Positions 2,122 through 31,499 of a DNA stretch of 32,000 nt are shown piece after piece (position 1 is the stretch's first letter; each line of letters begins with the position of its first letter). The DNA lies in NCBI RefSeq assembly GCF_000179635.2, contig NC_014833.1:1530001-1562000 (forward strand). The letters run 5' to 3'. This DNA comes from Ruminococcus albus 7 = DSM 20455. Lineage in GTDB: Bacteria > Bacillota > Clostridia > Oscillospirales > Ruminococcaceae. A model generated the notes under the pieces. That model did no database searches and was not told where the DNA came from. It saw only the letters and a program-made list of their open reading frames with translations. The translations under genes were made by a program, and so were the position numbers.

Positions 2122-3393
2122 ATGACTTACGAAGAATCACTGGAATATCTGAAGCTTGCCTCGGGAAAAGGCAGCGTGTTCGGACTTGAACGGGTAAAGG
2201 AACTGCTCAGGCGGCTGGGTGATCCACAGGAAAATGTGGCGATAATACACGTATCGGGAACTAACGGCAAAGGTTCATTCGGGGCTATGCTGACATCTGT
2301 GCTTTCCGAACAGGGCTATATCACAGGCGGATTTTCTTCACCTGCCATAACCTCGGTGACCGACAGCTACCGTATAAACTGCACCGAGATAAGCGAGGAG
2401 GTATTTGCCGATATCATCGGTATAATTGCTCCCATGGCAGATGCTATGGAGGATAAGCCCACTGAGTTTGAGATGCTTGCTGCAGCGGCATTCGTTCTGT
2501 TTGCCAAGGAAAACTGCGATATCGCCGTTGTTGAATGCGGCATGGGCGGAGATACGGATGCTACTAATGTTATGACCTCACCTTTGCTGTCTGTAATAAC
2601 CAATGTACAGTCCGATCACTGCCGTTTCCTGGGAAATACCCTGGCAGAGATAGCATCTCACAAGGCAGGTATAATCAAGCGCTGCCGTCCTGTGTATTTC
2701 GGCGGTGAAAGCAGTGAAGCCCTTGATGTCATCAGGCGCAGGGCTGAGGAATATGATGCACCCCTTTCGTTAAAAGACCCTGACTGTATATCGGATGTAA
2801 GCTGCAGTCTTGAGGGTATCAGTTTGGTATGGAAGGATCATCGGCTGAAAACTTCCTTGTGCGGAAGTTACCAGACTGATAATATCCTGAATGTACTTCA
2901 CTGCGTGGATATACTCAGGGATATGGGGCTGGAGATAAGCGATACAGCCCTTGAAAACGGTCTTGCAAAAACTGAATGGCACGGCAGGTTTGAAATACTC
3001 CGCCGTGACCCTTATGTTATATTCGACGGTGCACATAACCCCGACGGCATACGTTTCGCGGCTGATACCATATCACGCTTTTTCACTGAAAAGGCAGCGA
3101 TACTCATAGGTGTAATGGCTGATAAGGAATACGGGCTGTATGCCGATATGCTTGGCAGATATATAGATAAGGCATTCACTGTAAGACCCGATAATCCCCG
3201 TGCCCTCCACAGCAGTAAGCTTGCTGAGGTATTCACCGCTAATGGTATAAAAGCTGAAAGCTTTGAAGTCCTCTCAGACGGTGTAGAAGCGGCATATTCC
3301 TACGCAAAGGAAAAGGATATCCCACTTATCGCACTGGGCTCGCTATATATGTACCGCGAGTTCACAGTATGCCTTGACAGGATATCCCAATAA
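2122..3393 (+). CDS. folC: folylpolyglutamate synthase / dihydrofolate synthase
   Basis: 423 aa. Mur-ligase P-loop VSGTNGKGS, a FolC-typical N-terminus (YEESLEYL...GLERVKELLRRLGDPQ) and a C-terminal DGAHNPDG motif. Confidence 0.92.
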   Translation: MTYEESLEYLKLASGKGSVFGLERVKELLRRLGDPQENVAIIHVSGTNGKGSFGAMLTSVLSEQGYITGGFSSPAITSVTDSYRINCTEISEEVFADIIGIIAPMADAMEDKPTEFEMLAAAAFVLFAKENCDIAVVECGMGGDTDATNVMTSPLLSVITNVQSDHCRFLGNTLAEIASHKAGIIKRCRPVYFGGESSEALDVIRRRAEEYDAPLSLKDPDCISDVSCSLEGISLVWKDHRLKTSLCGSYQTDNILNVLHCVDILRDMGLEISDTALENGLAKTEWHGRFEILRRDPYVIFDGAHNPDGIRFAADTISRFFTEKAAILIGVMADKEYGLYADMLGRYIDKAFTVRPDNPRALHSSKLAEVFTANGIKAESFEVLSDGVEAAYSYAKEKDIPLIALGSLYMYREFTVCLDRISQ

Positions 3394-18107: not shown

Positions 18108-18321
18108 AAATGAGTTGTCTGACAAAAGACAGACAACGAAAAGGCATCTTGAAAATTGAACAACCAAGAATACGAAAACCCTTGAAAATACTTTGAGTGA
18201 TTGAGGTATTAACGATGAATGAATTCATCGAAGTCAAGTACAAGACTAAGAAAATGTACAAACGTTCAGTGAAACGAAACTGAGATCATAATTACTCTGA
18301 GAAGAGTATTAGGATACAACT

Positions 18322-19834
<1,513 letters not shown>

Positions 19835-20328: not shown

Positions 20329-23166
<2,838 letters not shown>

Positions 23167-23231: not shown

Positions 23232-23349
23232 AGTCGGTGATCATTGAGATGAGGTCACACCTGTTCCCATGCCGAACACAGAAGTTAAGCTCATCTTCGC
23301 TGAAAATACTCGGCGGGCGACCGCCCGGGAAAATAAGTTGTCGCCGGCT
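23232..23349 (+). rRNA. rrf: 5S ribosomal RNA
   Basis: AGTCGGTGA...CACCTGTTCCCATGCCGAACACAGAAGTTAAGC...TCGCCGGCT, with the terminal helix pairing the 5' and 3' ends. Confidence 0.93.
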
Positions 23350-23456: not shown

Positions 23457-23483
23457 CTTTATAACGCTGAAAACCAGCGTCAA

Positions 23484-23555
23484 GGCCCGTTGGTCAAGCG
23501 GTTAAGACTCCGGCCTCTCACGCCGGCGACGGGAGTTCGATTCTCCCACGGGTCA
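23484..23555 (+). tRNA. tRNA-Glu (anticodon CUC)
   Basis: GGCCCGTTGGTCAAGCGGTTAAGAC, anticodon loop CTCTCAC, GGGAG TTCGATT CTCCC T-arm. Confidence 0.9.
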
Positions 23556-23568
23556 TATTTCCCAAGAC

Positions 23569-23599
23569 CGCAAGCTGTTTCTTCAGTTTGCGTTTTTTT
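23569..23599 (+). terminator. terminator-like hairpin between tRNA-Glu and tRNA-Met
   Basis: CGCAAGCTG tttctt CAGTTTGCG (9 bp, one G-U pair) followed by TTTTTTT. Confidence 0.55.
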
Positions 23600-23605
23600 G
23601 TACAT

Positions 23606-23679
23606 GGACCATTAGCTCAGTTGGTCAGAGCAACCGGCTCATAACCGGTGGGTCCGGGGTTCGAGTCCCTGATGGTCCA
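23606..23679 (+). tRNA. tRNA with CAU anticodon (elongator Met; lysidine-type Ile2 not excluded)
   Basis: GGACCATTAGCTCAGTTGGTCAGAGC, anticodon loop CTCATAA. No initiator features: no three G-C pairs in the anticodon stem and no C1-A72 mismatch. Confidence 0.88.
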
Positions 23680-23689
23680 TTTCTTTTTT

Positions 23690-23762
23690 AGGGGTATAGC
23701 TCAGCTGGTAGAGCAGCGGTCTCCAAAACCGCGTGTCCCGAGTTCGATCCTTGGTGCCCCTG
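23690..23762 (+). tRNA. tRNA-Trp (anticodon CCA)
   Basis: AGGGGTATAGCTCAGCTGGTAGAGC, anticodon loop CTCCAAA, TTCGATC T-loop. Confidence 0.9.
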
Positions 23763-23768
23763 CTATCT

Positions 23769-23803
23769 CCGTGAGGGAAGAAATTCCCTTGCGGGGGCTT
23801 TTC
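23769..23803 (+). terminator. terminator of the rrn-tRNA operon
   Basis: CCGTGAGGGAA gaaa TTCCCTTGCGG. The two G-U pairs are only valid on the plus strand. GGGCTTTTC follows. Confidence 0.6.
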
Positions 23804-23805
23804 AT

Positions 23806-24544
23806 ATATAAAGTGTGTCTATAGACACAGTGTATGCAATTCACTTGCTGGCACAAGTCCATTGATCTCAGTGAATTTGTGCCAACAAGCGGTACTTGCT
23901 ATACCAGCCTGTTGGTTTATTTATAACCGCTGTAGGATAGCGGAAATAATTTTGTGGATTGCCTTGAAAGTTTTCCTTTTGACGCAGATCAGTTAGATCA
24001 CCTAGTCATCAGTGTATTCTGAGGAGTGACAAACTCTTTTAGCAAATACACCTTGCTGTCGGCTGCGCCCTTTGCATAGTCGATACAGACCATGACTTCC
24101 CGATTACCTCCCCGGTAGCTCACACCACAGTGTTTATACTCGCTGCACTTACTGTCACTAAGTGGTCACGGCGCACATTGAGGTAGCTGCCATAAGGCAG
24201 GTTTGCAAATGCAAACTGTTACAATGCAGCTGAAATCTTTCAGCAGTTATTGAGGTCTCGTCGTGGTTGCTTTCTCTCTCTGGCTATTCAGTTCAACTGG
24301 AGTCAGCCGTAGGATCCGTAAGTCTTACGGGAAAAAAGAAAAGAGTTCTCAGCACTACTCACAAAAGCATACTGAAAACTCCTTGACAAATATATCAAAA
24401 CCATGCTATAATATACAACATGGACATTGATGCACTCATCTGTAAAAGTCTCACATCTGCTTTCTGAGAGCATTTGTGCTGATGGCTTACTTGAATTGGC
24501 GTTCATTTAAGCCACAGGTGGGTGTTTTGTTGTTCGCACTCACT
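23806..24544 (-). ncRNA. candidate large structured non-coding RNA (unassigned; strand inferred only from the promoter)
   Basis: The six-frame track has no ORF of 60 aa or more on either strand from 23465 to 24302. A consensus minus-strand promoter at 24551..24579 fires into the region. There are many local helices; see findings. Confidence 0.3.
24383..24412 (+). promoter_or_regulatory. consensus promoter facing the minus-strand promoter at 24551..24579
   Basis: TTGACA (24383..24388), 18 nt, TGcTATAAT (TATAAT 24407..24412). Confidence 0.6.
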
Positions 24545-24550
24545 GTATGT

Positions 24551-24579
24551 ATTATAGCACATCGTTTTTTATTTGTCAA
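24551..24579 (-). promoter_or_regulatory. consensus promoter directed into the ORF-free region
   Basis: On the minus strand: TTGACA (24579..24574), 17 nt, TGcTATAAT (24559..24551). Confidence 0.65.
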
Positions 24580-24676
24580 GCCTTTTTTAAAAATAATTTT
24601 GAATAAATTTTAATTTGTTTATTCTTTTTCTCACGGATATATATTGATATATCGTATATATTTTGAATATTATAGA

Positions 24677-24705
24677 TTGACGAATTATCCTCTTTTTGGT
24701 ATTAT
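24677..24705 (+). promoter_or_regulatory. promoter of the integrase gene
   Basis: TTGACG (24677..24682), 17 nt, TGgTATTAT (24700..24705). Confidence 0.55.
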
Positions 24706-24755
24706 AGTTCTTGTGCTTTTGCATACAGGAATATATACTTTGGAGGATATTTTTA

Positions 24756-25632
24756 ATGTTATTCGAGAAACAGAACAACAACACAGTCGAGGAGTACATG
24801 ACAAAATGGCTTATTAATACTAAACGCCCATCATTAAAGCGTTCTTCGTATGATAGGGTAGAACAAAGTCTAAATTATCAGATCTTCCCGGCTATAGGCA
24901 AAATAAAGTTAAAGAAACTGACTGCTGATGATATTCAAATGATGTTGAACAATCTTTCAGAACGTTCTTCTTATAGTACAACTAAAAAAGCATACGTTAA
25001 TCTGAAGAGTTGTCTTGATCTTGCGGTTTTAAAAGGGGATATAAAGAAGAATCCTATACTTTCGGTTGTTCTTCCCAAAAATAATAAATCTGATGAAACG
25101 GTAGTATATTACTCTCCCGAACAGGCGAGGGCGATTGCTGCCGAAGCTATTTCAACTTATAATAATGGCAGTTTTAAGTATAGGTACGGTTATTTCATCG
25201 TGTTTATGCTAAATACCGGTCTGCGTGTTGGGGAGGCTCTTGCACTTAGTTGGTCTGATGTAGATTTTACAAATAAAATAGTTTACGTACATAACAGCGT
25301 TTCGTCGGTAAAAACAAGAGGGGACAGCAGCATGAAGTATGAAAAGATAGTAAATTCTCCCAAATCACGAAATTCTGTTCGTTATGTTCCACTCAATAAA
25401 ACAGCACTTGATGCTTTAGTAAAGATACACGCTATAATGGGTGATAATGATAGGATAGTTGCCACGGAGAATGGTCTGTTAGTTGATCCAAGCGCTATTC
25501 ATCGCACTATGTCGCGAGTCCTTAAAAACTGCGGAATCAACGGTAAGAAAGACATTGTTCACGCTCTACGCCATACATTCGCAACGCTATTGCTCAGACA
25601 AGGGACTGATATTAAGGTCGTTTCCGAATCCT
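24756..25632 (+). pseudogene. int: tyrosine recombinase / phage-type integrase, 5' part (interrupted by IS256-family element)
   Basis: GGAGG SD and ATG at 24756. Contains an N-terminal SAM-like domain, the Arg box GLRVGEALAL and the HALRHTFAT box. The reading frame is cut at 25632 by the IS end. Confidence 0.88.
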
Positions 25633-27081
25633 GAGTCTATCCTAAAATTTGTGTAAACCTCTGAAGTAGTGTATAATAGAAGAGACACTACTTTGGAGGT
25701 TTTAATTATGAGCAGAAGACGAAGAAATGAAACAGAAGAGCAGCGAGCAAGAAGAGAGCTAATAAGTGATTTTCTTTCGGCAGCGAATATTCAGAGCATG
25801 GACGATATTCAGGAACTTTTCAAGGAGGCACTTGCCGGATTTATGGAAGGTAGCCTTGAATCAGAGCTTGATTCCGAGCTTGGATACGAGCCGTATGACG
25901 TTAAGAACAAGGCTACCGACAACAGTCGTAACGGTCACAGCAAGAAAACTCTTCGTACCAGTATGGGTAAGGTTGATATTGAAGTTCCTCGTGACAGAAA
26001 CGGCGAATTCGAGCCTAAGATACTGCCCAAGAATCAGACAAGCATATCTCAGGATATGGAGAACAAGATCATCTCAATGTATGCCAAAGGTATGTCAACG
26101 TCTGATATTGAGGATCATATTCGTGACATTTACGGTCTTGAGATATCCGATACTACTGTCAGCCGCATAACCGATAAAGTGCTTCCCGCAGCCAAGGAAT
26201 GGCAGCAAAGACCACTTGAAAGCATCTATGCAGTCGTATTTCTTGATGCTATCCACTACCACGTTCGCAGCGAGGGACAGATCATCAAAAAGGCTGTCTA
26301 CATAGCGATAGGCGTTAATATGGACGGCAGGAAGGACGTTCTCGGTATGTGGGTAGGCGAAAATGAAAGTGCCAAATTCTGGGCAGGCGTTCTGAATAGT
26401 CTGCGTAACAGAGGCGTTGATGATATTCTTATCGCCTGCACTGATAACCTGACAGGTTTTTCTCAGGCGATAGAGGCTGTATTTCCGAAAACTGATATCC
26501 AGAACTGTATCATTCATCAGCTCAGGAATTCAAGCAAATATGTCTCCTACAAGGATATCAAGGCGCTTATGACCGACCTGAAAAAGGTCTATACTGCCGC
26601 CACTGAAGAAGCTGCTCTGGACGCTCTGGACGAATTTGCCGCTGTCTGGGACAGCAAATATCCCAAGATCTCAAAGTCATGGTACGAAAACTGGCCTAAT
26701 CTCAGCACATATTTCAAGTTCCCGCAGGAGCTTCGGAAGCTGATCTATACCACCAATGCAATCGAAGGATTCAACCGTCAGCTTAGGAAAGTGACCAAAA
26801 CAAAATCCGTATTTCCTACAGATGACAGCCTTTTCAAGATGCTGTATCTGGCTATGAAGGACATCACGAAAAAGTGGACTGGGCGTCGTCAGGACTGGAG
26901 CAGTATCTATGCTCAGCTTGTGATCTATTACGGAGACAGAATACCCGAATAATACTTTTATCTTGACAATCATATAATCATGTGCTAATATGCTGATAAG
27001 ACCGACTGCTTTCACAATCGGTCTCATCATACACTTTTCTATTGCACTATTTTGCGTTTACACAGAATTTGGGATTGACTC
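25633..27081 (+). mobile_element. IS256-family insertion sequence (1449 bp)
   Basis: Imperfect 26-bp terminal inverted repeats match at 21/26 positions: GAGTCTATCCTAAAATTTGTGTAAAC (left) and GAGTCAATCCCAAATTCTGTGTAAAC (right, reverse complement). The flanks are GAATCCT and GAAATCCT, a near-identical target duplication. One transposase gene inside. Confidence 0.9.
25708..26952 (+). CDS. IS256-family (Mutator-like) transposase
   Basis: 414 aa from the ATG after GGAGG. Contains the family-typical block NSRNGHSKKTLRTSMGKVDIEVPRDRNGEFEPKILPK and DDE-region blocks. Confidence 0.92.
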   Translation: MSRRRRNETEEQRARRELISDFLSAANIQSMDDIQELFKEALAGFMEGSLESELDSELGYEPYDVKNKATDNSRNGHSKKTLRTSMGKVDIEVPRDRNGEFEPKILPKNQTSISQDMENKIISMYAKGMSTSDIEDHIRDIYGLEISDTTVSRITDKVLPAAKEWQQRPLESIYAVVFLDAIHYHVRSEGQIIKKAVYIAIGVNMDGRKDVLGMWVGENESAKFWAGVLNSLRNRGVDDILIACTDNLTGFSQAIEAVFPKTDIQNCIIHQLRNSSKYVSYKDIKALMTDLKKVYTAATEEAALDALDEFAAVWDSKYPKISKSWYENWPNLSTYFKFPQELRKLIYTTNAIEGFNRQLRKVTKTKSVFPTDDSLFKMLYLAMKDITKKWTGRRQDWSSIYAQLVIYYGDRIPE

Positions 27082-27186
27082 GAAATCCTAGGGCATTCTG
27101 ACATTTCGATAACGATGAAGTTCTATTATCATGTTATAGAGGAACAGAAAAAGACTGCTATGACAAAGCTTGATGAGATTTATTAA
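27082..27186 (+). pseudogene. int: integrase 3' fragment (catalytic Tyr region)
   Basis: Translates to EILGHSDISITMKFYYHVIEEQKKTAMTKLDEIY*. It continues ...DIKVVSE from 25632 and carries the LGHS...Y motif of tyrosine recombinases. Confidence 0.85.
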
Positions 27187-27215
27187 AGTGTGTTGTCTTT
27201 AGACATAGTTTGATT

Positions 27216-27393: not shown

Positions 27394-27407
27394 ATAATTA
27401 ATAGTAA

Positions 27408-27480
27408 AAAAGCAAAACTACTGAAAAGCAGTGACGCAAAGCCAAGGGTCTAAGCCGAAAGGTATGACAGCCGGTTGCCA
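27408..27480 (+). promoter_or_regulatory. c-di-GMP-I (GEMM-I) riboswitch aptamer
   Basis: Sequence is GCAAAAC-CUACU GAAA AGCAG-UG-ACGCAAAGCC-AAGGGUCUAAGCC GAAA GGUAUGAC-AGCCGGUUGCC. The conserved GCAAA and ACGCAAAGCC blocks are present. There is a GAAA tetraloop hairpin (27418..27431), an 11-nt-type tetraloop receptor (CUAAG 27450..27454 / UAUG 27463..27466) and the 3' AGCCGGUUGCC block. Confidence 0.85.
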
Positions 27481-27511
27481 TGCAGTTGTGCATGAAAAAT
27501 GGTTGACAGTT

Positions 27512-27540: not shown

Positions 27541-27692
27541 TTTATGTAAAAAAGGAGGTCGGTCTTATTATGTTGAAGAAAAGGTTTTTTTCATTTGTTT
27601 TGACTTCTGCTTTTACTTCTATATACAGCGTCTTCTAAGAAATCAAAGACAGAATAAAAAGACAAGTAAATACAAAGGACGGAGGAATGACT

Positions 27693-28808
27693 ATGAAAAA
27701 CATCGCAAGATTTATCGCTTTTACAGCAGCTGTTTACCTGACATTTACTGCCTGCGGAACAACAGAAGGTAATCAGACCAAGGAAAAACCGACTAGTGCC
27801 GAAACATCGGCTGTTATTACAGAAGCAGCTGAAACTTCTGAAAAGGAAGAAATCGAGACTGAAGCCCCAAAAGAAACGACGTCTGCCAAAATATCCGAAA
27901 CAGAACCGACACAGGACAGAGTTCACCTTGACTACGGTGATGAGGAAGCATTTGAAGCTGCTCTTAATTCGGGCGATGATCTTAACGGAAAAACTGTAAG
28001 TATTATAGCTCAGGAACTTCATCCGGAATCAATATACGGTTACAATATCTGGGCTGGTATTCATCTTAATTTTGTTTCACCGGATGACCCGAATGTTCAA
28101 GTCGGTGATGTTCTGACAGTCAGGATAACAAACGCTGAACTTGTCGATCAATCGTGGATAATCAGGTACGATATGGTTGAAAATGCAGTTGAGGACGAAT
28201 ATACAATCACAGCGGAAAATCTTCCCGAAACTAATGAAGAACCCGAAGAAGACACGCCTAATGCTTATGAGAGCAATAAGTATTACGAAATAATCGATGC
28301 AGCAAGCTGGATAAATTCTATCGTGAACACGGTGATAGTTCACAAGATACAGGCAAAACAGGATGTTTCGATCTCAGCTTCTCTGATCGCATATTAGGAA
28401 GACGGAAGCGTTGTCGGCAAAGGCAGTGATGATATCACGCTGACAAAGGGGCAGGTGAACTATTTTGAATATCACTTTAGCGGAGATATTTCCGGCACGA
28501 AGCTTCGTGCTAATGCTACTGCAAAGAGTGACGGGCTTTTCACAGGGGCACGTAATGTGGTAGAACTTGTACAATGTGACACTGCCGGCGAAGAAGTTTT
28601 TCTTACTTTCAAACAGACGGCAGACGAGTTGGGCGGTTTTGCAAAATTCAAGCTGCTTCTCTATAAAGACGATCAGATCGTCGGAACTAAAGATGGGCAT
28701 TTCGATGTTTATGCAAAAAATCTTAATGGCAAAGGAGCTACTGATGTGGCTGATATAACGGTTTATGAAACAGATTTCGACAGGGTCGAAGTTATCATTG
28801 AACCATAA
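27693..28808 (+). pseudogene. putative secreted lipoprotein interrupted by an in-frame TAG (28395..28397)
   Basis: The signal peptide plus lipobox is MKNIARFIAFTAAVYLTFTAC. GGAGG lies 7 nt upstream of the ATG at 27693. The track ORFs 27687..28397 and 28455..28808 are in the same frame and are separated only by one TAG. The frame stays open from 28398. Confidence 0.7.
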
Positions 28809-29259: not shown

Positions 29260-30868
29260 GTCTCTCCTCAACAAGCCTCTAAAATCCACGGCATACCGGC
29301 TGGCGATATGAGAAGCGAATATTTATCACTATTTTCCAGAAGCGTAAAAGCATCGCCGCCAGGCGGTCGATGTTCATTGCGATGACGCTGAGAACTATCG
29401 ATGCTCTTGTTGTGTCTTCTCTTTTTGTGAGCAGCAGACCAAGACCGAATTTGCGCTTTGCAAGACTGAACTTACGCTCCACTTCGATCCTGTCGGTATT
29501 ATCTTTATATGCTGCCTTCTTTTCAGCCTTGCTGTCGGCGTCATTCTTCGGTCTTCCGAGTTTTTTGCCTGAAATACGTATGCCGTGACCGCTGCAAAAC
29601 GAGATGTTTTCACGGTTGCGATATATCTGATCAACAAGAACTCGCTCCGGATAATGACCTGTGCGCTGCTTGTAGTTTTCAATTGCTGTTTTCAGAACTG
29701 CACTTTCGTTGTAAGCATTAAAGGATAGCTTCTCGATCCTGCACATCCCGGTCTCATCAACTGACAGATCGAGCTTAGCTCCAAACTCAACAGGAGATTT
29801 TGCTTTACCTCTTACGATCGGTCGGATGTACGGCTGGCTGATGCTGACAATACGGTCTTCAACAGAATGAGTGTTGCTTTCAAACATATACCGCTGCTGA
29901 TCGTAAACGGTCATGAGAATATCAAGAAGCTCCTTATCGGAAACGGACAGCACAACGCCGTTGTTTTCGATAAGATTATCGATATATCCAAGGTCACGGC
30001 GAATATATTGAAGCTGCTTTTTGATCGCTTTTCTGATCTTTTTCGCACCGCGCTTTCTGCATTTGGCAAGTGCAAGATAGTCTTTTCTTGCCTTTTGATG
30101 GTACATTCTCGGTCTGTAAAATCCGTATTTATCGGAGACTCTGCACAGCATATCTTCAAGCTTTTCACGAACTTCATTCAGCAGCTCAATGTCCTGAGGA
30201 TACTTGATATTCTGCGGCGCACAGGTCGCATCAAGGATCAGTGTGCCAGAGTTTTCAGTTTTTTCTTCGGAATCATTTGCTGGATCTTGCTGATCGGGCT
30301 GACCTCCGTTTCCACTCACGTCATCAGAATCGTCATTGTCTTGCTGCGAGTTGTACTCGATGATCATTTCATTGATCTCGTTGAGAACATCCTCCGATAG
30401 TCTTTTGCGGAATTCCACGAGAAGCGAAGGTACGAACGGAATCTTATCCTCATATCCGGGCAGCCCGATGAAATACTGGTAGTACGGGTTCTCTCTGATC
30501 TGTTCGACGAGTTCTTCGTCCGGATAATGATATTGCTTCTGTATCAACAGCGAACCGAGTGCCATGCGGAGAGGCTTTGCGGGCATACCGGTATGGCTCG
30601 GGAACAGCCTGGCATATTCAGCTTCAATTGTTTCCCAAGGGATCATTTCTGCTTTCTTTACCCAGCGGTTATCCGGGTTCATTTGCAAACCAAGCGGTTG
30701 ATTGAAATCTGTGAATGAAATCTGTTTTTCTTTCTTGAACTTATACATGGCATCCTCCGAAGTGCAAGCTTTTTTCTCGTTTTGATTACTTTTTCTTGCA
30801 CTTCTATTATACCATATTGGGTTGGATTTGTCGATATTTCGTCGCTTTATTGCTGTGTGAGGAGAGAC
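29260..30868 (-). mobile_element. IS1182/IS5-like insertion sequence (1609 bp)
   Basis: Perfect 11-bp terminal inverted repeats: GTCTCTCCTCA (29260..29270) and TGAGGAGAGAC (30858..30868). A 6-bp direct repeat, TAAATA, flanks both sides (29254..29259 and 30869..30874). One transposase gene inside. Confidence 0.85.
29279..30748 (-). CDS. IS1182/IS5-family DDE transposase
   Basis: 489 aa. The N-terminal InsH-like domain is ISFTDFNQPLGLQMNPDNRWVKKAEMIPWETIEAEYARLF. There is an acidic linker and a C-terminal DDE region. Confidence 0.88.
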   Translation of the reverse strand: MYKFKKEKQISFTDFNQPLGLQMNPDNRWVKKAEMIPWETIEAEYARLFPSHTGMPAKPLRMALGSLLIQKQYHYPDEELVEQIRENPYYQYFIGLPGYEDKIPFVPSLLVEFRKRLSEDVLNEINEMIIEYNSQQDNDDSDDVSGNGGQPDQQDPANDSEEKTENSGTLILDATCAPQNIKYPQDIELLNEVREKLEDMLCRVSDKYGFYRPRMYHQKARKDYLALAKCRKRGAKKIRKAIKKQLQYIRRDLGYIDNLIENNGVVLSVSDKELLDILMTVYDQQRYMFESNTHSVEDRIVSISQPYIRPIVRGKAKSPVEFGAKLDLSVDETGMCRIEKLSFNAYNESAVLKTAIENYKQRTGHYPERVLVDQIYRNRENISFCSGHGIRISGKKLGRPKNDADSKAEKKAAYKDNTDRIEVERKFSLAKRKFGLGLLLTKREDTTRASIVLSVIAMNIDRLAAMLLRFWKIVINIRFSYRQPVCRGF

Positions 30869-30893
30869 TAAATAGATTGTTATACGGTGATAG

Positions 30894-31499
30894 TCACCTC
30901 AGATCGTTGATGTCAAATGCTGTGTAGCCCTCATAGTAATAGCTGGTGTCAATGCCTTTCATGAATACTTCACGATCTTCTGTTTTATCTGTAAGGGCAT
31001 TTTTGAGCAGTATATTTATCTCTGTAGAGCGAATAGGACTTCTCTCCATAGCAAGTAGATAGTCCTCCTTATCTATTAAGCTCCAGTCAACGACTTTTTT
31101 CAGTTCGTTCTTGAAAATGTGGTCGAGCCATATCCTTGTTGCTCTTCCGTTTCCCTCACGGAATGGGTGACAGATATTCATCTCAACGTATTTTGCAACG
31201 ATATCATCAAAAGTTGTTTGCGGCATCTGTTCTACTGTTTTCAATGACTGATCCAGATACATAACAGGTGCAAAACGAAAACTGCCTTTTGCGATATTCA
31301 CGGTGCGGATCTTTCCTGCAAAGTAGTAAATATCCTCAAAAAGTGTTTTATTGATGAACATGAGTGTATCAATTGTACCTGCCTTTTTTGTGGCAAGCAT
31401 ATTCTGTTCAAATAGTGTAATTGCTTTCTGTTTTGAAATGCGTTCTTCTTCTCTTGCCAGCTCCGCCGAGCTTTGTGCATTTATCTTATTTTCAAGCAT
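30894..31499 (-). CDS. fic: Fic family protein (AMPylase-type, class III architecture)
   Basis: 201 aa. Fic active-site motif HPFREGNGRATR. The C-terminal SYYYEG matches the auto-inhibitory (S/T)xxxE(G/N) motif. Confidence 0.9.
   Translation of the reverse strand: MLENKINAQSSAELAREEERISKQKAITLFEQNMLATKKAGTIDTLMFINKTLFEDIYYFAGKIRTVNIAKGSFRFAPVMYLDQSLKTVEQMPQTTFDDIVAKYVEMNICHPFREGNGRATRIWLDHIFKNELKKVVDWSLIDKEDYLLAMERSPIRSTEINILLKNALTDKTEDREVFMKGIDTSYYYEGYTAFDINDLR

Follow-up and report, generated by a model that had tools for sequence, protein, structure and literature searches.

A non-coding stretch between tRNA-Trp and a tyrosine recombinase gene in Ruminococcus albus 7 combines a convergent small-RNA pair with a hairpin-rich module

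We analysed a non-coding stretch (positions 23806 to 24544) within a 32,000-nucleotide window of the Ruminococcus albus 7 (DSM 20455) genome (contig NC_014833.1, positions 1,530,001 to 1,562,000 of the forward strand). On balance, we regard it as probably the tRNA-Trp-proximal arm of a small integrative-element family in rumen Ruminococcus, made of two modules. Module A is hairpin-rich and probably an insulated, cis-acting element. Module B carries two perfect sigma-70 promoters placed face to face and is well supported as a small-RNA family new to Rfam 15, composed of a three-way-junction small RNA (sRNA) and a fully overlapping antisense partner. An earlier note, made from the sequence alone, had described the stretch as about 740 bp free of open reading frames (ORFs), dense in helices and lodged between a tRNA tail and an integrase, and had proposed a large structured RNA, either resembling ROOL or GOLLD or entirely new. 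The observation is real and its interpretation partly supported: the stretch is non-coding and conserved in relatives, it lies in mobile-element-like DNA between tRNA-Trp and a tyrosine recombinase, its hairpins are maintained by compensatory substitutions and it contains a real structured RNA. However, it is composite, and the strong evidence covers an sRNA of about 115 nt with an antisense partner of about 210 nt instead of one giant RNA.

Module B and its small-RNA pair

Homologous loci (L numbers) were found via the integrase, plus one pattern scan each of metagenome and genome collections. Module B spans 24332-24579 and contains the following features.

24383..24412, plus strand: promoter TTGACA-18-TGcTATAAT, which drives the plus-strand sRNA; kept in every homolog
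24551..24579, minus strand: promoter TTGACA-17-TGcTATAAT, which drives the antisense RNA; kept in all homologs
24422..24535, plus strand: sRNA, about 115 nt long; P1, P2 and P3 form a three-way junction, with a U tract behind it
24332..24544, minus strand: predicted antisense RNA of about 210 nt, made up of a hairpin at the 5' end, the P3 and P2 complements, T1 and T2
24401..24423, minus strand: stem-loop T1 of the minus RNA, covering the -10 box and start site of the plus promoter
24332..24381, minus strand: T2, intrinsic terminator of the minus RNA, with stem GAGUUUUCAG/CUGAGAACUC and then UUUUCUUUUUU, directly after T1

All 9 distinct homologs share this layout, in which TTGACA-17/18-TGnTATAAT on the plus strand is followed after about 115 nt by a convergent TTGACA...TGnTATAAT on the minus strand. 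The minus promoter, already reported by the earlier note at 24579-24551, matches the consensus at 12 of 12 positions. The plus promoter had been mentioned only in passing; it actually also matches at 12 of 12 and faces the first. The minus promoter does point into the region, as claimed, but the conserved hairpin T1 and then the terminator T2 precede the bulk of it.

The strand and structure of the sRNA were defined with a covariance model (R1), which scored 70-121 bits on the plus strand and 14-21 bits on the minus strand over 11 sequences. In the model alignment 99.7% of 304 cells are paired, a single cell being unpaired, and 9 pairs (33 cells) show compensatory change on both sides. None of 500 shuffles reached this pairing and covariation, and slid controls paired 33-48% of cells. 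P1, formed by GCACUCAUCUGU/ACAGGUGGGUG with the U tract behind it, includes four to five positions where G·U alternates with A-U or G-C. Its G·U pairs work only on the plus strand, so P1 exists solely in the plus RNA. The sequences of the P2 and P3 hairpins are wholly different among lineages; the P3 variants include GGCTTA/TAAGCC, GATTTAA/TTAAATC, GCTGATA/TATCAGC and GTCAAGTTACA/TGTAACTTGAC. These data demonstrate that module B is real.

On the opposite strand, the arms of T1 covary (CCATG/CATGG, TCTGTG/CACAGA, CTTGTG/CGCAAG, TCGTG/CACGA, GTCGTG/TACGAC). Because its 5' arm on the plus strand lies upstream of the plus start site, T1 belongs to the minus transcript and not to the sRNA. T2 is present in all eight lineages with a variable stem and an invariant U tract, CUCUUUUCUUUUU; in the window, L011, L006 and L030 its stem includes minus-strand G·U pairs. 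A promoter followed by T1 and T2 thus most likely yields an antisense RNA of about 210 nt that ends before the bulk of the region. A five-hairpin fold of this RNA was predicted in 7 of the 8 homologs folded; the exception, L030, is a partial segment.

A convergent, overlapping small-RNA pair in a mobile element could also be a type I toxin-antitoxin locus, and the window does contain a hydrophobic 45-aa plus-strand ORF (24476-24613) as well as the 67-aa minus-strand ORF (24303-24506) listed by the earlier note. However, no ORF is conserved in either RNA among the homologs compared, start, frame and length differing from one to the next. R. albus AR67 (L001) has ACG instead of the ATG of the 67-aa ORF and stops the plus ORF early, and the short plus-strand peptides shift frame among L011, L005 and L006. 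We therefore judge a toxin-antitoxin function extremely unlikely.

In its organization module B is closest to the counter-transcribed RNA (ctRNA) systems of plasmids: promoters converge, and a short structured RNA is the complement of the 5' portion of a longer one. As in pIP501 RNAIII/RNAII, pT181 RNAI/RNAII and ColE1 RNA I/RNA II, strong promoters are set face to face; both RNAs, of 100-200 nt, are highly structured and fully complementary, with intrinsic terminators at their ends; a hairpin or terminator follows the complementary stretch of the longer RNA; and the module sits in the non-coding control region of a mobile element. In contrast with these systems, there is no downstream rep gene or leader-gene fusion, T2 ends the long RNA before module A, the sequence is unrelated and the host DNA is a tRNA-adjacent integrative element, not a plasmid. 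The only ctRNA match in Rfam, ctRNA_p42d, is at chance level, reaching 17.2 bits (E = 1.5) where the gathering score is 50. The geometry of RNA I and RNA II, in which facing promoters give a short RNA complementary to the 5' ~120 nt of a long one with structured non-coding DNA downstream, would accommodate replication control of the ColE1 or pIP501 type. The long minus RNA would then be a pre-primer or leader entering module A as the origin, and the sRNA its antisense inhibitor. We find this improbable, given the strong conserved T2 between the overlap and module A in every lineage, the missing rep gene, the occurrence of module A in two unrelated types and the failure to find a plasmid homolog.

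The idea that the sRNA serves as a guide by pairing to tRNA-Trp or to the palindromic site described below was dropped, no complementarity being seen by eye.

Module A, a conserved hairpin-rich segment

Module A occupies most of the stretch between tRNA-Trp and module B. Features without a strand are those for which none is assigned.

23836..24330: module A, type 1; conserved, hairpin-rich, ORF-free
23845..23888: H1, long hairpin just 3' of the tRNA; GGCACAA/TTGTGCC in the window, GCTCGG/CCGAGC in L006, CGGATAAG/CTTGTCC in L011
23882..23915: H2, three-segment hairpin followed by TTTATTTAT; one compensatory pair, and two A·C cells on the plus strand in L011
23927..23943, plus strand: H3, hairpin with a variable loop and an A/U-rich tail; a weak terminator-like site against transcription from the tRNA side
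24113..24144: invariant 32-nt block CGGTAGCTCACACCACAGTGTTTATACTCGCT; identical in the window, L009, L001, L007 and L011, with one change in L018
24229..24244: H10, hairpin GCTGAA/TTCAGC; most compensatory change, 4 of 6 pairs being altered on both sides over six sequences
24307..24330: H12, hairpin CCGTAGGA/TCTTACGG; CCGTCA/TGACGG in L001, CCGTTGAG/CTCAACGG in L011; three compensatory pairs

Type 1 is represented by six sequences from about four independent lineages, with 70-96% identity to the window in L009, L001, L007, L018 and L011. In its ten local hairpins, 95.7% of cells are paired and 15 pairs show compensatory change (three of them in H7). None of 500 shuffles equalled this, and slid controls paired 25-48% of cells, showing that the hairpins are kept by selection. 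The linkers between them are strongly conserved, with invariant stretches of 18-32 nt, and the hairpin loops are variable. The 32-nt block is unchanged although the integrase of L011 is only 57% identical.

The absence of ORFs of at least 60 aa from 23465-24302 was confirmed, the longest there having 58 aa. Decay of a coding sequence was considered and rejected: six-frame segments are not protein-like and ORFs are not preserved in relatives, where a 41-aa minus-strand ORF (23998-24123) is disrupted by a 1-nt indel. The density of helices is likewise borne out. The folding energy of the whole region, compared with 20 shuffles only, gave z = -4.7 on the plus strand and -7.0 on the minus strand. 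With 200 shuffles each, z was -4.2 and -3.9 for 23836-24100, and -2.8 (plus) and -1.2 (minus) for 24080-24345. Promoter-like sites number 8 against 3.7 ± 1.9 in shuffles, and terminator-like sites 6 against 1.7 ± 1.4.

The helices listed by the earlier note all occur where it placed them, but two need revision. CCGTAAG/CTTACGG would leave a 1-nt loop, and what relatives keep is CCGT(A/C/T).../...ACGG at 24307-24330, that is, H12. The proposed A-B-A'-B' pseudoknot did not survive comparison, as its loop is a nested hairpin in L011 and L006, where AATTCACT/AGTGAATT has no counterpart. The 3' arm of H1 overlaps the 5' arm of H2 through a shared CCAACAAG, so these two hairpins are mutually exclusive. 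The segments CTTGCTGG, CCAACAAG and CCTGTTGG (23845-23915) build them, and the CTTG(C/T)TG motif is found again at 24054. These elements could be an attenuator-like switch or a set of repeated protein-binding sites. The loops of H3 differ in L009, L001 and L007, and L011 and L006 have another hairpin with a U-rich tail in its place. In L011 the loop of this equivalent hairpin (120-146) is GTAGTGTGTTAATTG, which resembles the MOBV nick motif TAGTGTG/TTATA; the H3 loop of the window does not.

Pairing in module A shows no preference for a strand. Canonical pairs fill 314 of 328 cells when read on the plus strand and 315 of 328 on the minus strand, 93% of cells being Watson-Crick. On the plus strand, G·U occurs in 9 cells and A·C in 10, corresponding by reading to roughly 6 and 7 independent events. 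No promoter-like site lies inside the module, and the hairpin-plus-U sites at its flanks point inward, H2 and H3 on the plus side and T2 on the minus side. The long-range helices predicted by RNAalifold on both strands from the six sequences are either invariant or broken, none having compensatory support.

Rfam searches with cmscan returned no large-RNA family in the whole window (gathering thresholds), in 23700-24800 (E <= 10) or in seven homologous loci (E <= 1); ROOL, GOLLD, HEARO, raiA, OLE, tmRNA and the group II introns were all without a match, and ARAGORN detected no tmRNA. BLASTN of the region, the core and module B against phages and plasmids gave no match or chance-level matches only. 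Neither the sRNA pattern nor the invariant core had any match in IMG/VR, and a literature search for the motif strings returned unrelated primers only. Two candidate sites were discarded. L009 does not preserve the DnaA box at 23950-23960, and the likeness of the conserved CCTTTTGA(C/T)(G/A) to the pC194-type nick CTTGATA was not convincing, since the window has TTGACG.

A model of the arm and its alternatives

In the model that we favour, module B is an antisense-RNA control unit whose two consensus promoters would fire convergently. The plus promoter would produce the sRNA of about 115 nt, ending at its own P1 helix and U tract, and the minus promoter the RNA of about 210 nt, whose first ~120 nt would be the exact complement of the sRNA and which would end at T1 and T2. 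Pairing of the two RNAs, together with interference between converging polymerases, may set the level of each. T1 and T2 would keep transcripts from the strong outward promoter out of module A and also out of the tRNA/rRNA operon of the host, which they would otherwise enter in antisense. Module A would be a cis-acting element of mobile DNA held transcription-free: an origin-like or recombination-accessory site, or else an RNA made only after excision or by read-through. We favour a cis-acting module A over a free-standing RNA because of its strand-symmetric pairing, its lack of a promoter, the inward-facing terminator-like sites and its modular replacement among relatives.

The layout resembles the end of Tn916, where an insulator terminator stands with a cis-acting RNA element, canT (PMC11658703): in both cases the non-coding end of an integrative element adjoins host transcription, and terminators shield element and host from each other. 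The likeness considered here is one of layout, and unlike at the Tn916 end the shielding is two-directional and an antisense RNA pair is present.

Several points weigh against the model. The ends of both module B RNAs are predicted from promoters and terminators. The integrase is not an obvious target of module B, since it is served by a promoter of its own and runs the other way in L006 and L030. The likeness of the invariant block of module A to the nick region of pMV158 amounts to a match with 3 edits, at chance level. The strand test and the search for long-range pairs have low power, because only six type-1 sequences are available. Long invariant linkers between hairpins with variable loops also fit a folded RNA. 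In L011 and L006 no terminator separates the tRNA from module A, whereas R. albus has one, so that co-transcription with the tRNA is possible there.

The last two points, together with compensatory change at 15 pairs and the better folding of the core on the plus strand (z = -2.8 against -1.2), would suit a new large structured RNA of 500-700 nt formed by module A alone or with module B. Transcription running on from the tRNA operon would supply it on the plus strand, with tRNA 3' processing setting it free; on the minus strand it would come from transcripts that pass T1 and T2. Reports place ROOL and GOLLD beside tRNAs in phage-like DNA, and the present region, directly downstream of tRNA-Trp and beside an integrase, shares this location. 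Like these RNAs, and like HEARO, OLE and raiA, it is large, ORF-free and hairpin-rich and lies by a tRNA in mobile DNA of a rumen Firmicute. Unlike them, it has no covariance-model match, consists of local hairpins only, shows no strand bias and is split by an internal promoter pair; long-range covarying helices on one strand were not found, in a comparison of six sequences with low power. The missing strand asymmetry (9 G·U against 10 A·C cells) contrasts with the sRNA of module B, 99.7% paired with many G·U. The absence of Rfam matches and of an internal promoter, the hairpin-plus-U sites facing inward at both ends, the core swapped for non-homologous sequence in L005, L006 and L030 and its dispensability beside a 98%-identical integrase further speak against a large RNA, which we consider possible but unlikely.

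Strand-symmetric, mostly Watson-Crick pairing would also be expected if the hairpins formed in DNA. Module A would then be a DNA-level origin, either an in-trans transfer origin of an 'iOriT'-type hitcher or a single-strand or rolling-circle origin. Both flanks have sites that would stop incoming transcription, relatives occur in conjugative-element contexts (type IV secretion system (T4SS) coupling protein, ParA/ParB or topoisomerase), and the R. albus copies appear to consist of the integrase and non-coding DNA only. Relaxase-less islands with only an origin of transfer (oriT) have been reported as common (bioRxiv 10.64898/2026.01.13.699239). The combination of an integrase with conserved non-coding DNA, overlapping exclusive inverted repeats and a short invariant block is shared with these elements and with the pMV158 oriT (PMC5863519), whose nick region (...ATAGTGTG/TTATACTT) the invariant block weakly resembles. 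However, the comparison of CAGTGTTTATACTC with TAGTGTGTTATACTT for a MOBV nick (GTGTG/TTATAC) needs 3 edits, and the loci contain a match this good roughly once every several kb. Neither a helper relaxase nor a matching oriT was identified, no matching sequence was found beside any relaxase, the plasmid and phage searches gave no homolog, and 500 bp is long for an oriT. We regard an origin in DNA as a doubtful, though conceivable, alternative.

Module B stands at the border between a mobile element and a host operon that is among the most heavily transcribed. This position makes it a clean system for asking how integrative elements of gut and rumen Firmicutes insulate themselves from host transcription and set their state by antisense RNA. 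Whether module A acts as RNA or as a DNA-level origin or site bears on what a ~2-kb element of 'integrase plus non-coding DNA' needs to persist and move.

Relatives and mobile-element setting

The whole region is found in L009 with 96% identity, in R. albus AR67 (L001/L002/L010) with about 81% and in L007 with 77%, and partially in L018. A far more diverged copy in L011/L013 has about 70% identity, with an integrase just 57% identical. The pattern scans, one per collection, detected 1 of 185,579 species representative genomes and 4 metagenome contigs. The family thus looks narrow, comprising R. albus and rumen relatives, which limits its general impact.

Relatives depart from this arrangement in two ways. 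L003 and L004 have a 98%-identical integrase and miss the whole 735 bp: their tRNA-Trp trailer is directly fused to the -10 box of the minus promoter, which they retain despite lacking modules A and B. L005, L006 and L030 keep the hairpins nearest the tRNA as well as module B and T2, with a core of no detectable similarity to type 1; homology between this type 2 and type 1 was looked for with nhmmer and none was found. In L030 and L006 the integrase is reversed relative to modules A and B. The loci L012 (1-60) and L014 (1-115), compared with L011 (~820), carry the same integrase module with different left-hand DNA, the breakpoint lying within the spacer of the minus promoter. The -35 box therefore remains on the integrase side, as an outward-facing -35 at the end of the module.

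The junction with the tRNA varies as well. Module A begins two bases past the CCA end of tRNA-Trp in L011 and adjoins a 53-nt 3' half of tRNA-Trp in L006. This half is flanked by ParA/ParB on one side and by Fic, a Gp49/helix-turn-helix toxin-antitoxin pair and a 326-aa integrase on the other, an attP-like arrangement. Some related integrases have a T4SS coupling protein as neighbour, others a topoisomerase together with a GntR regulator. More distant ones (P0007, P0008, P0050, P0014, P0009, P0006) occur in MmeI-type restriction-modification, HipA or T4SS contexts and have neither module. Among these, L019-L028 (integrases P0007, P0008 and P0050) lie between MmeI-type methyltransferase/target recognition domain genes and HipA-like genes, a layout that recalls phase-variable restriction-modification shufflons.

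A palindromic site marks the left edge of module A, and the recombinase gene lies beyond module B.

23811..23830: palindromic site AAGTGTG-TCTATAGA-CACA(G), bordering module A on its left in both the window and L009
24756..27187, plus strand: tyrosine recombinase gene, 324 aa when rejoined, with a GGAGG ribosome-binding site 5' of the start
27190..27212: degenerate copy of the palindrome, just 3' of the integrase stop, aligning to the perfect L001 site 2266-2287

The exact 14-mer GTGTCTATAGACAC (AAGTGTG-TCTATAGA-CACACTT) stands right after the integrase stop in L001, L002, L007, L008 and L018, and in L011-L013 and L015 it flanks the integrase on either side. Its palindromic form and its conservation point to the core site of an Xer-sized recombinase, and it is likely the core recombination site of the neighbouring one; as such, it would allow segments lying between two copies to be deleted or inverted. 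No second tRNA-Trp 3' end (attR copy) was found downstream in the window. Modules A and B together might even be a protein-free, RNA-only mobile cassette of about 735 bp, moved by the Xer-sized recombinase at this palindrome, with module A a new large-RNA class whose expression would depend on the host tRNA operon or on prior excision; we think this quite unlikely.

Further exact copies of GTGTCTATAGACAC lie several kb from the integrase in L001 (6592-6605) and L008 (2279-2292). In L001 two genes, one of them a dockerin/leucine-rich-repeat gene, lie between the copy after the integrase and the extra copy, which hints at more recombinase-bounded segments. A presumed second site at 24541-24560 was rejected as probably just the -10 box, the real L011 site being about 100 bp further right. 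Three palindrome matches in IMG/VR fall within a 1264-aa ORF and were put down to chance.

The recombinase has the Pfam domains Phage_int_SAM_3, Phage_int_M and Phage_integrase, without an arm-binding domain, and its own promoter at 24677-24705. The promoter diverging from this gene also brought to mind an integron attC cassette array, a kind defined by an IntI-type integrase with its extra domain and by attC sites at the cassette borders; the recombinase here shows the Phage_int_SAM_3 and Phage_int_M architecture. Its gene is interrupted by an IS256-family element (25633-27081) inserted just 5' of the catalytic tyrosine codon; the frame restarts at 27082 and stops at 27187, and excising the element gives back the 324-aa frame. 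The element has 26-nt inverted repeats and a Transposase_mut ORF (Pfam; 25669-26952), and is flanked by a near-identical short duplication, GAATCCT and AAATCCT. Once rejoined, the protein shares 98% identity with P0001, an intact protein from a metagenome, and 82% with P0002 from Ruminococcus albus. A short stretch (24638-24665) immediately 5' of the integrase promoter holds a single palindromic octamer, GATATATC (24658-24665), beside a near copy, GATATATA (24646-24653). The pair looks like an operator, and L003 has two exact copies of the octamer.

Neighbouring features of the window

On the host side, the rRNA operon comprises the 16S (18321-19831), 23S (20329-23165) and 5S (23233-23349) genes, followed 3' of the 5S by tRNA-Lys, -Glu, -Met and -Trp, the last at 23690-23763.

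23766..23797, plus strand: intrinsic terminator of the rRNA-tRNA operon, a 14-bp stem and then CTTTTC, directly 3' of tRNA-Trp

This terminator is identical in L001 and L009, and L003 has a different one there.

Beyond the integrase, a cyclic di-GMP-I riboswitch (27401-27482, 70.7 bits) lies upstream of a 236-aa ORF (27687-28397) with no Pfam match. A DDE transposase gene (DUF772 + DDE_Tnp_1_2) and a Fic/DOC gene are on the minus strand at 29279-31499. Since L006 and L020 also have Fic genes close to their related integrases, the island may reach past the integrase. At the far left of the window, a tetrahydrofolate riboswitch (1889-1987, 80.9 bits) lies upstream of an ORF at 2122-3393.

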